A stretch of 64,000 bases of DNA. It comes from Raja brachyura (Eukaryota). The notes beneath the pieces are model-generated. The model was not told the DNA's origin. It was given only the letters and a program-made list of their open reading frames with translations, and did no database searches. Numbering within the stretch: the first letter of the stretch is position 1; every line of letters begins with the position of its first letter. Where the stretch lies: the NCBI GenBank assembly GCA_963514005.1, contig OY740813.1:31558001-31622000 (forward strand), read 5' to 3'. Position numbers and translations under genes: made by a program. This document shows positions 3,344 to 21,020 of this stretch, in pieces.

Positions 3344-3640
3344 CGGATCCATCTGCCCCCAAACTCTATCCCGTTCGCGCTTGTGTGGATCCCAGCTCCA
3401 TGGACTCGTTCACCTTCGGCTGTTTGGCAATGGACTACAACCCGATGGGCATCACTCTCTCCTGGAAAAAAGATAATGAACCGGTTACCACAGGAGTGAA
3501 GACGTATCAGGCATTAAAAAATAAGAGGGGAACATACACCAGGAGCAGCCAATTGACCATCGCCAAGGCAGAAGCGGAAAAGCGCACAATCTACTGTGTG
3601 GTTCAGCATGGCGGTAAAGCGAATAACGTAACAATGCCAG
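3344..3640 (+). CDS. IGHM: IgM heavy chain constant exon CH1 (Cmu1)
   Basis: Acceptor ttttctcttccag| at 3343 and donor CCAG|gtacgc at 3641, both phase 1. Translates (A)DPSAPKLYPVRAC...FGCLAMDYNP...LSWKKDNEPVTTGVKTY...KRGTYTRSSQLT...IYCVVQHG...NVTMP. C1-set Ig fold with the extra N-terminal Cys for light-chain bonding; resembles chondrichthyan Cmu1 (GCLAMDY, GTYTxSSQLT). Confidence 0.95.
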
Positions 3641-6601: not shown

Positions 6602-6913
6602 ATCGAATGGTGCATCATACAGTCATCGCCATTACTGTGACTGAACATGATGAACTAAAACGCAGCAAGAAAGCGACTGCCGTGTGTTCGCTCACCGACA
6701 TCGATCCACAGACATTTTCCGTTACCTGGCTGAAGAATGGGGAGCCTCTGGATTCTGGCATCGTCACCTCGTCCGCCTTCGAGCTGAACGGCACCTTTTC
6801 AGCGATCAGCCAGTTGACATTCCCAACTTTAGAATGGTTCGGATATGCTATGTATACCTGCCAGGTCGACCAAGGAAAGGATCGGCTGAGCCAAAACATC
6901 AGCAGGTCTCCAG
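6602..6913 (+). CDS. IGHM: IgM heavy chain constant exon CH2 (Cmu2)
   Basis: Acceptor ttttcttgaag| and donor CCAG|gtaag, phase 1. DRMVHHTVIAITV...AVCSLTDIDP...VTWLKNGEPLDSGIVTS...NGTFSAISQLT...EWF...YTCQV...SQNISRSP: C-W-C Ig C1-set domain like shark Cmu2. Confidence 0.93.
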
Positions 6914-7490: not shown

Positions 7491-7790
7491 ATGCTTCCTG
7501 CCGCGAAGCAAAGATTACAATCCACCCACCACCTGTGCAGCAGGAGTTAATGGAGATGACCGTGACTTTAACCTGTATAGTCTCCGATGCACCTGTTGGG
7601 ATCAAAGTGTCTTGGAGCCGAGGAAAGACACATTTGGATTCAGAGATCCTGTCCACAGAAGTTGCGGATGTTGTAGAGAGCAAAGCGAACATCTCGACGC
7701 GTGATTGGATGAGTGGGGATGAGTTTGATTGCGTAGTGAGCCATGATGATATGCCGACTCCAAAAAAGAAATCAATCTACAAGATGGCAG
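7491..7790 (+). CDS. IGHM: IgM heavy chain constant exon CH3 (Cmu3)
   Basis: Acceptor tttttgtgccacag| and donor GGCAG|gtgag. DASCREAKITIHPPPVQQELMEMTVTLTCIVSDAP...VSW...NISTRDWMSGDEFDCVVSHDDMPTP...; typical of shark Cmu3. Confidence 0.95.
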
Positions 7791-8280: not shown

Positions 8281-8672
8281 ATCCACATCCCCGGGAACCG
8301 ACCGTCTCGGTCCTCCTGCCGCCGACAGAAGAAGTCTCCATTCACAAGACCATCACCCTGACCTGCTTTGCGAGAGGATTCTCCCCTCGCAGGATCTTCG
8401 TCACATGGACAGTCGATAACCACCGGGTGCATTCGAGCAACTACAGGAACACCGAGGTGGTGGCGGAGAACGGCGACAACTCATTCTTCATGTACAGCCT
8501 GTTATCCGTTGGGGCAGAGCAATGGGCGAGCGGAGCCTCTTTCTCCTGTGTGGTAGCACACGAAACACTCCCCATGAAGACCATCGTTAGAACGGTCAAT
8601 AAGTCTAGCGGTAAACCCAGTTTTGTGAATGTTTCTCTCCTATTGATGGATACTGTCAATTCATGTCAATGA
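8281..8672 (+). CDS. IGHM: IgM CH4 exon plus secretory tailpiece (internal donor for the membrane form at 8610/8611)
   Basis: Acceptor ttgttccatag|. [15 protein letters not shown]...[17 protein letters not shown]...[22 protein letters not shown]...NKSS|[20 protein letters not shown]. The tail has an N-V-S sequon and penultimate Cys, diagnostic of secreted IgM. AGCG|GTAAAC is the conserved internal splice donor. Confidence 0.97.
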
Positions 8673-14987: not shown

Positions 14988-15583
14988 TTAATATGGGTCT
15001 ATGTCGTCACCGGAAGGGCTACTGACATGTTTTACCCAGTGATCACATACATTGTAAAGAGGAGATTTCATCTGTGGGCCATTCGTTCTCCATACATCAT
15101 ATTAGAGAAGATGATGCCCATACATTAAGCTGTAAAGCTAATTTTCTCACACACAGTATTCTTTCATCCCATATTCCGAATAAGCACACATCAGCGTTTA
15201 CGTTGTTCCGGGGGGAATCACAGCTAATTACTGGGATCCGATGTTTTGCATTCAGTGAGTTCCTCTGTTGATCTGCGGTCGCCTTCTATAAAGAGTGCTT
15301 TGATAACATTGCATTTTGAACAAACTCCAATTTGCGTACCCTCCCAGTTAATTAATTATATTATCTGGAACAGGAGGTTTATACAATGAACAACCTTCCT
15401 GGGACAAAACAGACTCACGGGTTTCTCTAAAATTCCCGATAAGCGGATGACTGAGAGTAGCTGTTGCTACTAGACACAAAATGCTGAGGTAACTCAGCGG
15501 GTCAGGCAGCATCTCCGGAGAGAAGGAATGGGTGACGTTTCGGGTCGAGACCGTTCTTCGGACTCTGACGAAGAGTCTCGACC

Positions 15584-16711
15584 CCGTTACGTATTTGGTA
15601 ACATGTCTCGAACAGCAAAATAACTATCTTGGACTTGAGTTCTCCAGAGCACCGGATCGTTGCCTCCTGCACACTGTTTTTTCTCTTCCTGCACTGACAT
15701 AATTGCCCTTTTGCCCATTTACCCTCGTCAGCTTTTCCCACATTAGGAAAGCTTATGTAGTTGCCCCGCTTACAAAGGTAATATACCTATGCTGGCGGGG
15801 CAAAGAAGGATGCATTCCTAATCGGTATCAAACTATGTTCCTTAAAATGTAGTCATTTTACCTGATTCTTGTTTTTCACGCGGTCATACGTGCTAGATAT
15901 CAAACTCCTTCCAACTCATTCAAACATATCGCTTTTGTCGTCCATAGCCTTACTGTGGGGAAATATTTTGACAATCTGCCACATCTTTCACACAGAGAGT
16001 GGTGGAACTCTCTGCCACAGAAGGTAGTTGAAGCCAGTTCATTGGCTATATTTAAGAGGGAGTTAGATGTGGCCCTTGTGGCTTAAGGGATCAGGGGGTA
16101 TGCAGAGAAGGCAGGTACAGGATACTGAGTTGGATGGTCAGCCATTGAATGGCGGTGCAGGCTGGAAGGGCCGAGTGGCCTACTCCTGCACCTATTTTCT
16201 ATGTTTCTATCTTTCTATCTGTGCCTCTCACAATCATGGATACATTTACAAGTTCATCCATCAGTCTCCATTGCTCTTATGAAAACAAATCCAACCACCC
16301 AATCTCCGCCTATAACACAAGATCTTTAATCCAAACACCGTTATGTTGAATTTGGGTTTACTGATTTCTCTAACTTTTGGTAGCCCCCGGCATTCCCTCT
16401 CTTTATCCCTCCACCACCCAGGTTGCACAAGCTTTTTGTTTTCACCTAACAAACAGCTAACAGTGGCTTGTTTTCGTTATCATCATTACTTTTTTGCACA
16501 TCTTTCAATCATTGTTCTTTATCTCTCTACATCATCGCCTATATTGCTCGTTTCCCTTATCCCTAACCAGTCTGAAGAAAGATCTCGACCCGAAACGTCA
16601 CCTGTTCCTTCTCTCCAGAGATGCTGCCTCGCCCGCTGGGTTAATCCAGATGTTTGTGTCTACCGACATGTTGAAGTTCCTCTTCATTCCTTTATAAGCA
16701 ACATCGTGTAT
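15584..16711 (+). repeat. Local duplication, copy 1 (1128 bp)
   Basis: Identical to 17652-18779 at offset 2068 apart from one substitution noticed (atattgctc vs atatcgctc); the ORF tracks at 16067/18135 and 16149/18217 are identical. Confidence 0.97.
16572..16602 (+). ncRNA. Degenerate minimal type-I hammerhead ribozyme motif (Penelope-derived); second copy at 18640-18670
   Basis: CTGAAGA-aagatctcgaccc-GAAAC-GTC-acc: CUGANGA and GAAA core boxes, palindromic minimal helix III and a GUC cleavage triplet. Helix II is partly mismatched. Confidence 0.5.
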
Positions 16712-16992
16712 CTAATCCTTTTCTCAAGCGATACTGCCTGACCCGCTGAGTTACCCCAGCATTTTGTGTCTGCCAATTGAGACCAGCATCTGCGGTTCTT
16801 TCCTACACGTAGCTTTTGCTGCAACTGGCTATGAGTTTGTATCTAATTATTGAGGATGATCAGCTAATCAGCAAAAACTTCATACCAAATTAATATCCTC
16901 TACAGAAAGTTATTGGAAAATAATAAATATAATGGATACAATATCCATGATTAGAAATGTTGAAAACTTGTGAAACTTCCCGCTTTCCGTAG

Positions 16993-17120
16993 ATTTCACA
17001 GACAGCATTCGTATTGAGGACTATGAGGAAGACAACGACAAAACCTGGACAACCGCTCGCACATTCATCATCCTGTTCTTTCTCAGCATTTCCTACGCCG
17101 CTGTCCTCACTCTTGTGAAG
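16993..17120 (+). CDS. IGHM: IgM transmembrane exon TM1
   Basis: Acceptor cttcccgctttccgtag| and donor GTGAAG|gtgag. (D)FTDSIRIEDYEEDNDKTWTTARTFIILFFLSISYAAVLTLVK: acidic spacer followed by an Ig TM helix (WTTA..FI.LF.LS..Y). Not in the ORF track. An in-frame alternative acceptor lies 9 nt downstream (17001/17002). Confidence 0.95.
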
Positions 17121-17205
17121 GTGAGTTAATTTCACCTACCTTTCACCTAATTGAAGAGAATGGATACATCTGAATTAGCGGAACCAGTAGAGGTCCTGAC
17201 TGCTA

Positions 17206-17208
<3 letters not shown>

Positions 17209-17272
<64 letters not shown>
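17209..17272 (+). repeat. (TC)32 microsatellite in the TM1-TM2 intron
   Basis: Uninterrupted TC dinucleotide run ending 11 nt before the TM2 exon. Confidence 0.97.
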
Positions 17273-17276
<4 letters not shown>

Positions 17277-17283
17277 TTCACAG

Positions 17284-17292
17284 ATCAAGTGA
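17284..17292 (+). CDS. IGHM: IgM transmembrane exon TM2 (ATC AAG TGA; cytoplasmic tail K-I-K)
   Basis: (TC)n tract followed by ttccttcacag|ATCAAGTGA, 163 nt after the TM1 donor. Corresponds to the VK* mini-exon of membrane IgM. Confidence 0.9.
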   Translation: MK

Positions 17293-17651
17293 CGGTTTAA
17301 AGTATGAAATCGCGTGTGTCTCTCGTCGATGTTTGGACACCGCCATTTACTGCCAAGGGAAATGTGCCAAACTGAATCGCACAATATCATGAACAATAAT
17401 TCATTCTGTCAATTTGAATTGTTTGAAGCAGCCTAGGATGCCTTTAGAACATAGTTAATGTACCAAACTATTTTAATCTAAATCTGAATGTCATGCGCAA
17501 ATAAGTTCTCAGTCTGCATACATTTATTTTTTTACTTTAGCGTGGGTCATATTTCTTGTCGTACCGGTGTTGAATGTCGTTTTTCGAAAGTAGAACAAAT
17601 AGGTTGTTTATAGTGAGGATATGAACTTAATGATAATTTCGGATATATTAT

Positions 17652-18779
17652 CCGTTACGTATTTGGTAACATGTCTCGAACAGCAAAATAACTATCTTGG
17701 ACTTGAGTTCTCCAGAGCACCGGATCGTTGCCTCCTGCACACTGTTTTTTCTCTTCCTGCACTGACATAATTGCCCTTTTGCCCATTTACCCTCGTCAGC
17801 TTTTCCCACATTAGGAAAGCTTATGTAGTTGCCCCGCTTACAAAGGTAATATACCTATGCTGGCGGGGCAAAGAAGGATGCATTCCTAATCGGTATCAAA
17901 CTATGTTCCTTAAAATGTAGTCATTTTACCTGATTCTTGTTTTTCACGCGGTCATACGTGCTAGATATCAAACTCCTTCCAACTCATTCAAACATATCGC
18001 TTTTGTCGTCCATAGCCTTACTGTGGGGAAATATTTTGACAATCTGCCACATCTTTCACACAGAGAGTGGTGGAACTCTCTGCCACAGAAGGTAGTTGAA
18101 GCCAGTTCATTGGCTATATTTAAGAGGGAGTTAGATGTGGCCCTTGTGGCTTAAGGGATCAGGGGGTATGCAGAGAAGGCAGGTACAGGATACTGAGTTG
18201 GATGGTCAGCCATTGAATGGCGGTGCAGGCTGGAAGGGCCGAGTGGCCTACTCCTGCACCTATTTTCTATGTTTCTATCTTTCTATCTGTGCCTCTCACA
18301 ATCATGGATACATTTACAAGTTCATCCATCAGTCTCCATTGCTCTTATGAAAACAAATCCAACCACCCAATCTCCGCCTATAACACAAGATCTTTAATCC
18401 AAACACCGTTATGTTGAATTTGGGTTTACTGATTTCTCTAACTTTTGGTAGCCCCCGGCATTCCCTCTCTTTATCCCTCCACCACCCAGGTTGCACAAGC
18501 TTTTTGTTTTCACCTAACAAACAGCTAACAGTGGCTTGTTTTCGTTATCATCATTACTTTTTTGCACATCTTTCAATCATTGTTCTTTATCTCTCTACAT
18601 CATCGCCTATATCGCTCGTTTCCCTTATCCCTAACCAGTCTGAAGAAAGATCTCGACCCGAAACGTCACCTGTTCCTTCTCTCCAGAGATGCTGCCTCGC
18701 CCGCTGGGTTAATCCAGATGTTTGTGTCTACCGACATGTTGAAGTTCCTCTTCATTCCTTTATAAGCAACATCGTGTAT
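17652..18779 (+). repeat. Local duplication, copy 2 (1128 bp), downstream of TM2
   Basis: Direct repeat of 15584-16711; ends exactly at the 5' truncation point of a CR1. Confidence 0.97.
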
Positions 18780-19820
18780 TCTGAAGTGGCAGGCAGTGAC
18801 TAGTGGGCTACCGCAAGGCTCGGTGCTGGGACCGCAGCTATTTACAATATACATCAATGATTTAGATGAAGAGATATAAAGTAACATTTGCAAATCTGCA
18901 GATGACACAAAGCTGGGTGGCAGTGTGAACTGTGAGGAGGATGCTATGAGAATGCAGGGTGACTTGGACAGGTTGGGGGAGTGGGCAGATGCATGGAACA
19001 TGCAGTTTAATGTGGATAAATGGGAGGTTATCCACTTTGGTAGCAAAAACAGGAAGGCAGATTATTATTCAATTGTGTCAAGTTTGGAAAAGGGGAAGTA
19101 CAACGGGATGTGGGGGTCCTTGTTTATCAGTCAATGAAAGTAAGCATGCAGGTACAGCAGGCTGTGAAGAAAGCGAATGGCATGTTGGGCTTCATAACAA
19201 GAGGTGTTGAGTATAGGGGCAAAGAGGTCCTTCTGTAGTTATACAGGGCCCTAGTGAGACCACACAAGTATTGAGTGCAGTTTTCCTCCCCTACTTTGAG
19301 GAAGGACATTCTTGCTATTGAGGGAATGCAGCGTAGGTTTACAAGATTCTTTCCCGGGATGACGGGACTCTCATGTGCTGAAAGAATGGAGCGGCTGGGC
19401 TTGTATACTCTGGAATTTAGAAGGATGAGAGGATATCTTATTGAAACATATTATTGGAGGTTTGGACACGCTGGAGGCAGGAAGCATGTTCCCGATGTTG
19501 GGGGAGCCCAGAACCAGGGGCCACAGTTTAAGAATAAGGGGTAAGGAATTTAGAACGGAGATGAGGAAACACTTTTTCACACAGAGAGTTGTGAGTCTGT
19601 GGAATTCTCTGGCTCCGAAGGCGGTGGAGGCCGGTTCTCTGGATACTTTCAAGAGAGAACGTGGAAGATAGCGGAGTCTCTTAAAGATAGCGGAGTCGGG
19701 GGATATAGGGAGAAAGCAGGAAGGGGTTGCTGATTGTGGATGGTCAGCCATGATCACACTGAATGACGGTGCTGGCTCGAAGGGCCGAATGGCCTACTTC
19801 TGCACCTATTGTCTATTGTC
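18780..19820 (+). mobile_element. 5'-truncated CR1 LINE
   Basis: [19 protein letters not shown]...ADDTKLGG...[13 protein letters not shown] with stops and frameshifts; 3' UTR ending ctattgtctattgtc. Confidence 0.88.
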
Positions 19821-20707
19821 TTCTGAAAATTACAACGTAACACCGCGGCCATTATATTCTATGCCATGTGCTTCCTTCAGCATGTTGTTGGTCTGTCTTA
19901 CCACTTTCTGGAAATTGGGATATTGGAAACGAAAGCCTCACTGTTCATTAACATTCCTTGTCCTTCAACATTTACTGCAATTTTGCTACCTCCATCTGTC
20001 TTCCAAAAATGCATAATCTTCCCCAAATTCCAGATTTATTCTGATTTAATTTCATCAGTCAATGCTTCCAGGGCGTTCCGTTGTTAGCCTTAGACAACAT
20101 TCTTCGCTATTCATGTTACCTAAAATTATTGTGACATCCGCAGACTTAAAAACATTCCTCATAATTTAAAATCCACGACTTCAGTATGTTCATCTCGGAC
20201 AACACAAGCACCAACCTCTGTGGTGGACAGCATGTAGCAGACTTTCAATCGGGGGGAAAAAATCATCTATGCAACAACGCCGCCTGACACCCATCACCAA
20301 GCTAGTGTTGATACTGTCCTGTCTTTATTATAGAACAGTACAATACAGGGACAGAATCTTCAATGCACAATGCCCGGGCCGAATCACATGCCAGGTTAAA
20401 GCTATTCTCCTATGCTGTATACACACCCGACATTAGGCGGATTCACACCCGCCTAATGTTTTCTAATCTTCTAATGTCACTACCGCGTCTGCCTCCACTT
20501 CCCATGGCAGCGCGCCTAAGACACGCGTTATTTTCAGTGTAAAAATCATACCTGCATGCTTCTAAATCAGACAGCATTCGATGAAACCTCATCTGCTCTT
20601 TCTCCAAAGCCTCCTCATAATTCCTTCAATGGGGTGACCAAGTCTGCGCACAACACTTTAATTTCGGCCTAACCAGTCCTGTACATTCAATGTCATGCCA
20701 ATGCATG

Positions 20708-21020
20708 TGTAAATATATGCCAGAGAATCCAACTTCTTCGACTATTCCGTGTGGAGCAAGTCAGCATTCCCGTCCTGTTTGCACAGTTGTCCTTTCCTTA
20801 GTTCTGAGCGTATCCCCGACACGCGTGCTCACTGCAATTGGTCAGCGAGCTAAATGTTCAGTTGACCTGGTCTCAGTAAGGAACACAAATGTTTTATCCA
20901 CTTTGTGTTAAGATTATATAACCTTCTCTGTAAAATGTTTATGTGATTACACAAATAAAAGTTGAACGATATATTGACTAACCTGGCGTGCTGTGTTTGT
21001 TTCTCGAAGTTACCTTCACA
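20708..21020 (+). mobile_element. Possible solo LTR
   Basis: TGT...ACA ends, an internal TATA-like element and AATAAA (about 20954). No TSD could be identified. Confidence 0.3.

Follow-up and report, generated by a model that had tools for sequence, protein, structure and literature searches.

A recent direct repeat around the transmembrane exons of a V-less IgM constant gene in the skate Raja brachyura

An IgM constant gene with repeat-flanked transmembrane exons

In Raja brachyura, a stretch of 64,000 nucleotides (contig OY740813.1, 31,558,001-31,622,000, forward strand; here called the window, with negative positions lying upstream of its first letter) carries an IgM constant gene whose two transmembrane (TM) exons are enclosed by a direct repeat of 1.1 kb. 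The window contains no N, and the contig ends ~250 kb away. The gene consists of four C1-set constant heavy-chain (CH) exons with phase-1 GT-AG introns, a secretory tail with a penultimate Cys, and the exons TM1 and TM2, and it groups with skate IgM at a support of 100/100; the fetched IgW clusters are only 24-40% alike. All exons are open and have GT-AG sites. The elements of the gene and of the repeat are as follows.

3344..3640, + strand: C-mu1 exon, open frame with AG/GT sites; C1-set match, E 5.5e-14
6602..6913, + strand: C-mu2 exon, open frame; acceptor AAG instead of CAG; C1-set match
7491..7790, + strand: C-mu3 exon, open frame; C1-set match
8281..8672, + strand: C-mu4 exon, C1-set match; internal donor after 8610; secretory tail ending in Cys-Gln-stop
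15584..16711, + strand: repeat copy 1, a derived insertion within the CH4-TM1 intron
16712..17651, + strand: TM block, unique, 940 bp, between the repeat copies
16993..17120, + strand: TM1 exon, open, with GT-AG sites
17284..17292, + strand: TM2 exon (Ile-Lys-stop), with GT-AG sites, behind an expanded (CT)n tract
17652..18779, + strand: repeat copy 2, at the ancestral position, within the predicted membrane-form 3' untranslated region (UTR)
20954..20959, + strand: AATAAA beyond the repeat, likely the poly(A) signal of the membrane form; its context is conserved in paralogues C2a and C24

C-mu1 is 47-56% identical to 27 other CH1 exons, and two AATAAA motifs (8700 and 8710) lie 3' of the C-mu4 secretory tail. 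The position of the poly(A) signal at 20954 places copy 2 within the predicted membrane 3' UTR. The TM1 exon encodes an Arg at a position occupied by Ser or Pro in 10 of 10 aligned paralogues; its donor (17113-17130) is GT here and GC in several paralogues (C2a, C3a, C35b).

In a self-alignment of the window, the two copies of the repeat (15584-16711 and 17652-18779) are 1128 bp each, align without gaps and differ at a single position, T at 16545 and C at 18613; the runner-up repeat pair in the window has an identity of 96%. The repeat is a mosaic, constituted in copy 1 by ~400 bp of unique DNA, a 3' piece of a long interspersed nuclear element (LINE; 15981-16218), a short repeat (16359-16664) and 47 bp of unique DNA. 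Its first 417 bp, the unique 5' part, match two places in the 2.7-Gb genome (2 of 2 candidates), which are the two copies themselves; a transposon or long-terminal-repeat pair was therefore rejected, since this part does not belong to a multi-copy family. No further match to the repeat occurs in 1.2 Mb of fetched loci. Furthermore, the target of copy 1 lost ~11 bp and was not duplicated, unlike in a transposon insertion.

Read evidence and origin of the new copy

Contigs of five of the 20 runs listed were compared with the window. X1 and X2 derive from a single sample with a library type not on record, and their contigs differ from the window by 0-1 letters; the sample may be the animal that was assembled. 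X3 (relative B) and X7 (relative C) are one run each, and X11, from a second animal under the same label, has a coverage too low to genotype. Relative B differs from the window in 33 of 3104 letters and relative C in 45 of 3115 (1.1-1.4%).

In X1/X2, the contigs break exactly at the first base of the repeat: the contigs coming from both upstream sides end 30 letters into it, and a separate contig begins at that base, which is the graph pattern of a true duplication. The contig across the left junction (15535-15613) joins flank and repeat at flank depth, with 49 letters to the left and 30 to the right, one below the 31-letter bridging threshold. These patterns speak against an assembly artefact, and the near-identical repeat described around the TM exons in the initial annotation is confirmed, with support from the reads. 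In X3 and X7, the TM block and copy 2 are joined within one contig and depths are even, so that a single copy is present, and the contigs of both runs start inside the 3' tail of the LINE at 18779-19827 and continue into the flank. Because the two relatives carry one copy, contiguous from the TM block into copy 2, copy 1 is the newcomer and copy 2 occupies the ancestral position. With two copies in the reads of one animal and one copy in each of the two relatives (one run apiece), the repeat is a recent local segmental duplication, as recent as it had been taken to be from its near identity. From one mismatch in 1128 bp, the insertion would be about 8% as old as the A-B divergence, B being relative B (95% range 0.2-46%, gene conversion ignored). 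In addition, the intron DNA on either side of the copy 1 site is nearly adjacent in paralogous clusters, with a gap of 67 bp in L002 versus 1418 bp here. None of 29 paralogous TM loci, inspected with 1.5-kb flanks, has a comparable direct repeat; short repeats occur in 11 of them, at most 351 bp and 91%.

The depths in X1/X2 are 8.2/10.3 in the flank, 8.4/10.2 at the left junction (J1), 14.6/13.7 in the repeat and 3.9/3.9 in the TM block, the last being ~0.4x the flank in both runs; the ratio of flank, left junction, repeat and TM block is ~2:2:3:1. Five genotype models were compared using Poisson counts and an assumed 120 words per read, with an unchanged ranking at 70. A genotype of one duplicated and one TM-deleted allele fits the depths (chi2 4.3, df 6, p 0.63), and the other four models are rejected (p at most 1.4e-6); the sampled animal therefore likely carries one allele of each kind. 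The prediction that recombination between the copies would delete both TM exons is borne out to this extent: the deleted allele likely exists by the depth fit, and no deletion-spanning read was found. Unequal crossover had been envisaged at the same time as a means of duplicating the TM cassette. No TM triplication allele was observed; together with a deleted allele it would produce the depth ratio of a homozygote, and this ratio is rejected. Among the matches listed, no RNA run matches 15000-18800.

The surroundings of copy 1 retain the traces of its arrival, in a pair of short-repeat arms placed head to head and in an older LINE at the far end of copy 2.

15472..15564, - strand: left arm of the head-to-head short-repeat pair, the 3' end of a GIY-YIG-bearing element
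15565..15583, + strand: right arm, 5' piece, interrupted by copy 1 at J1
16712..16771, + strand: right arm, 3' piece, beginning at the right junction of copy 1 (J2); ~11 bp of the arm absent relative to other family copies
18779..19827, + strand: older 5'-truncated LINE with the target duplication TTCTGAA (18779-18785 and 19821-19827)

The split short repeat stops at 15583 and resumes at 16712, with ~11 bp absent in comparison with 32 different copies listed. At J1, an imperfect microhomology, CCGnnACGT, exists between the start of the repeat and the missing continuation of the right arm. With 11 N between them, the two halves of the split arm pair with the left arm in a predicted fold of -64.7 kcal/mol (mean of base-shuffled sequences -15.6), and the target of copy 1 is thus an inverted repeat of ~190 bp. 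Because copy 1 landed inside this hairpin-forming inverted repeat, a template switch is suggested, and a replication or repair template switch is the likely origin of copy 1. Within the repeat, a copy of the short-repeat family of these arms has an 80% match to the DNA immediately 3' of an open reading frame (ORF) with a GIY-YIG match (E 1.7e-4, just short of the Pfam cut-off). We take the family of the head-to-head arms to be Penelope-like. A resemblance of the short repeats to the hammerhead motif is likewise our assumption, which no Rfam hammerhead match supports; in 15300-19000 there is no such match, and the one match at E up to 5 is unrelated.

Both ends of the repeat coincide with other boundaries. 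Homology to the paralogues ends at the first base of the repeat in four of five clusters (17652-17655), and the target duplication of the older LINE begins with the last base of the repeat. The left end is accounted for by the microhomology, and the right end may be chance. A recent loss of DNA at the right-hand end of copy 2 was considered and rejected, the LINE there having a target duplication.

The missing V region and the lineage of the gene

Within ~10 kb upstream of CH1 there is no leader, heavy-chain variable (VH), D or joining (JH) segment, and no match to a leader, V or J lies within 260 kb to either side. Of 209 candidates in a genome-wide VH protein search, 150 were scored; the 66 matches obtained include none on this contig. 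Three VH queries and one JH query in tblastn had no match at E 0.05 across the surrounding 524 kb, which are gap-free upstream. A displaced V partner was rejected, since eight of eight VH loci checked (six distant, two from clusters without CH4 and TM matches) have their own C exons.

What remains upstream is a short remnant recognised by profile models of the paralogues.

-1557 to -1365 (L031:8443-8635), profile matches: VH-promoter remnant fused to J-C intron sequence

The promoter model was built from 13 rows, 2 of 15 being left out (C9 unanchored, C17 broken), and has its sole match at L031:8443-8505, or window -1557 to -1495, with E 9e-4. The J-intron model, of 11 rows after 4 of 15 were dropped for an internal repeat, has its best match 25 bp beyond the promoter remnant (E 0.006), starting ~114 bases behind the J donor. 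A leader model has no match. These E-values are modest, but order, strand and CH1 distance agree with the paralogues, the remnant lying 4.8 kb upstream of CH1 and the J of the paralogues ~4.5 kb before it; on reversed sequence, the best E is 3.4 for the one model and the other has no match. Because the promoter remnant lies next to J-intron sequence, we infer that leader, V, D and J were deleted in the germline. The remnant has kept its TATA and contains no GC box and three CpG, versus 1-2 GC boxes and 5-9 CpG in 13 of 13 paralogues. A consensus donor occurs nearest at -1333, preceded by no ATG in frame with CH1. Between the remnant and CH1, at 742-749, there is ATGCAAAT, which we take to be the octamer motif, in a context unlike that of the octamers of the paralogues.

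Elsewhere in the 524 kb, two related single-frame ORFs (-214,595 to -215,542 and 101,821 to 100,805) resemble, by eye, G-protein-coupled receptors; the other long ORFs noticed are repeats, among the matches listed.

The elasmobranch IgM minicluster is described as VH-D1-D2-JH-C-mu1-4-TM in PMC5192425. The window gene shares its four C1-set exons, secretory tail and TM1/TM2, and differs in lacking leader-V-D-D-J, in its promoter fused to the J intron, and in being a single old lineage with a synonymous divergence (dS) of ~0.5 from all nine paralogues compared. Against these nine, out of 13 paralogous regions, which have all four CH exons, dS is 0.49-0.57 and the ratio of nonsynonymous to synonymous divergence (dN/dS) 0.37-0.46. 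In a protein tree of 19 rows, the gene branches as sister of the other 12 skate-type rows (support 100/99), and the other IgM clusters of this genome group with Amblyraja IgM; by this placement it is the oldest IgM lineage among the sampled skate sequences. Its branch of 0.32 is about equal to the path to the others, without acceleration at the protein level. Protein collections yielded no orthologue among 70 candidates for a CH1 query, which is weak evidence, and no apparent orthologue among 30 matches for a CH4 query, the best at 78-79%.

Among the IgM loci found in the genome, 12 of 33 are incomplete, each without at least one of V, CH1, CH4 and TM, these absences being lower bounds. A second V-less CH1-CH4-TM locus, at C3:128,638,466-128,646,848 (L116, L117, L157, L158), is broken: CH2 is frameshifted, CH3 is unmatched and the CH4 match is shortened. 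No promoter remnant was found in the 24 kb upstream of it.

Several other loci were observed alongside. L009 (C35:30,418,815), 1.15 Mb from the window, is a solitary TM1 exon belonging to the main IgM clade; the 33 kb upstream contain neither CH nor V exons. Four near-identical IgM loci near contig ends (C2:156.6 Mb, C4:124.7 Mb, C5:122.4 Mb, C17:0.07 Mb) have V and TM and no CH4 match, three of them with CH1; they may be CH4-less membrane-only forms or decayed copies. At C24:41,951,572 (L048-L049), an IgM cluster has a germline-joined VDJ in an open frame, and in loci on C47 and C30 the V runs into J. L156 (C5:24,233,158-24,233,511, minus strand) is a processed membrane-IgM pseudogene, with CH4, TM1, TM2 and 3' UTR intronless and one stop, which implies a B-cell transcript retroposed into the germline. 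On C283, an IgW cluster (L124, L125, L142) has eight constant exons, including a tandem exon duplication. P0008, a shark-like IgM CH4 protein with 70% identity filed under Aeromonas veronii, is likely host contamination of the bacterial record.

Explanations and significance

The explanation to which we give somewhat better than even credence is a recent templated insertion into a V-less IgM constant gene that was orphaned not long ago and would now be in early decay, followed by the rise of an allele from which recombination between the repeats deleted the TM exons; this loss would likely be tolerated, since the gene has ceased to make an antibody of its own. The ~190-bp inverted repeat, as a hairpin, would have stalled or broken the DNA, and the free end may have primed 2 kb downstream at the imperfect microhomology, copied 1128 bp and rejoined ~11 bp from its departure point within the CH4-TM1 intron. 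Unequal or intra-chromatid recombination between the copies would subsequently have removed 2068 bp. The germline deletion of leader-V-D-D-J may have occurred shortly before, with the C exons not yet decayed. The counterpart among known processes is a template-switch insertion of the fork stalling and template switching (FoSTeS) or microhomology-mediated break-induced replication (MMBIR) type, followed by non-allelic homologous recombination between direct repeats. The locus agrees with it in the local templated copy, the imperfect microhomology, the small junction loss, the inverted repeat at the target, and the near-identical direct repeats flanking a unique block that was later lost; it differs in its small size (1.1 kb), in its setting in a skate Ig locus, in having both ends on older insertion boundaries and in an order of events that is inferred.

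Several observations weigh against this explanation. The positions of both repeat ends are not explained by template switching, J2 (16711/16712) is unbridged among the pieces listed, and the evidence for the deleted allele consists of contig depths of one animal at low depth, with an unrecorded library type and no deletion-spanning read. In the VH genome search, 150 out of 209 candidates were scored. On a branch with dS ~0.5 and dN/dS 0.37-0.46, the gene has kept all six exons and their splice sites intact; the one further V-less CH1-CH4-TM locus inspected (C3:128.6 Mb) shows obvious damage. Under assumed disabling rates, a neutral frame would survive with a probability of 44% after 0.5% divergence and of 7% after 1.6%; by the latter value, the V loss would fall within about the final tenth of the branch at most. 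The eroded promoter hints at an older V loss, at odds with neutral decay. Either the V loss would be recent, or else the exons would still be under selection. The frequency of partial clusters in the genome favours ordinary decay.

The depths would also arise from a homozygous duplication with bias or noise at the TM block, or from an assembly merging an ancestral and a deleted haplotype. Such an origin, which we regard as unlikely, draws on the unrecorded library type, the depth of ~4 per copy, the common sample of X1 and X2 and the unbridged J2; but the homozygous model has p 9e-8 and the merged-haplotype model p 1.4e-6 under the Poisson assumption, the TM block is at flank-level depth in X3 and X7, and its GC content is 36-40%, versus 38-43% in the flanks. 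The order of events may be reversed, a 951-bp loss of the TM exons coming first and one-sided repair between deleted and ancestral alleles then building the duplicated allele. This course predicts identical alleles and the same 2:2:3:1 depths, with J1 common to both alleles, but it requires a second chance break within ~11 bp, where one template switch yields both junctions, and the ancestral allele is not seen in the single informative animal; we hold it to be improbable. Least credible, and in our judgement very unlikely, is a functional IgM cluster turning secretion-only, with copy 1 adding competing 3'-end signals, which corresponds to what the initial annotation had proposed. In its favour are an intact secretory tail with intact poly(A) signals, the likely TM-less allele, and the V-less IgW transcripts and V-less secreted catfish IgD described in PMC5192425. 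Without its own leader, V or J, however, the locus is predicted to make neither an antibody nor a V-less chain bearing a signal peptide, and TM loss is found only on the likely second allele, so that the idea of a secretion-only IgM gene is not upheld. Nor do the paralogous clusters point to a route towards secretion-only loci, a CH4-bearing IgM locus without a TM match being found in 0 of 26 in the assembly. The repeat contains no AATAAA or ATTAAA, and the paralogue-conserved signal at 20954 is outside it, which speaks against competing 3'-end signals in copy 1. Cryptic splice acceptors in copy 1 were also considered and rejected, the intron having 119 YAG sites, many of them equally pyrimidine-rich outside the repeat.

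A different kind of explanation, in our view unlikely, keeps the structural history unchanged and grants the V-less gene a function, as a maintained acceptor for inter-cluster switching: rearranged VDJ of other clusters would recombine into the DNA before CH1 and be expressed with this divergent constant region, mainly in secreted form, the TM exons being dispensable. In its full form, which we consider equally unlikely, skates would keep an ancient single-copy V-less IgM constant gene, with promoter, non-coding first exon and intact C-mu1-4, as a dedicated switch acceptor and shed its TM exons, giving a secretion-only switched isotype, the cartilaginous-fish counterpart of the tetrapod downstream CH genes. 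The oldest sampled IgM lineage has intact exons and a dN/dS of ~0.4, yet a promoter without GC boxes. The succession of promoter, non-coding DNA, donor at -1333 and intact C exons, with no in-frame leader ATG, fits an acceptor as well, a layout that we take to resemble a germline-transcript unit. A B cell that requires a surface receptor dies without one, and a switched cell with this need would die on the TM-less allele. Furthermore, dN/dS spans the whole branch and cannot date the V loss, and with no VH found on the contig, the donor would sit on another chromosome. In the 1.5 kb behind the promoter there is no repetitive switch region (AGCT 4 and WGCW 32 per 1.5 kb versus a background of 5.1 and 25); this absence weighs little, because shark loci are described as without S regions in PMC4279169. 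In nurse shark, the V of one cluster is expressed with the C of another, >120 kb apart, and the switching is described between clusters having their own V (Zhu et al. 2012, as cited in PMC4279169 and PMC5192425). Such switching would give a V-less C gene an expression route; unlike in the nurse shark case, no donor cluster is on the window contig, and the passages of these reviews that were covered describe no dedicated V-less acceptor.

The two reviews describe IgM miniclusters, pseudogenes, V-less IgW/IgD and inter-cluster switching (PMC5192425, PMC4279169). V-less IgW is described in dogfish and nurse shark and V-less secreted IgD in catfish (PMC5192425), and the window gene resembles them as constant exons without V. 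In V-less IgW, the leader is spliced to the first C exon (PMC5192425); the window gene has no leader match and no ATG in frame with CH1 before the nearest donor. In the open-access literature searched, the papers listed include none on this locus, nor any on a V-less or TM-polymorphic IgM in skates.

On the preferred explanation of a recently orphaned gene with a templated insertion, the locus is a small, well-resolved case of birth and death at the immunoglobulin heavy-chain (IgH) loci: an old IgM lineage minus its V(D)J, with a likely segregating TM deletion whose cause is legible from the sequence. In annotation, this V-less locus will be counted among the IgM genes. Should its V-less state prove old, the intact exons would need a function, and the locus would then test whether shark-type switching targets dedicated acceptor genes, a question that PMC4279169 calls unresolved. 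Since the gene is single-copy with ~50% silent-site divergence, any switched transcript would be assignable to it unambiguously.

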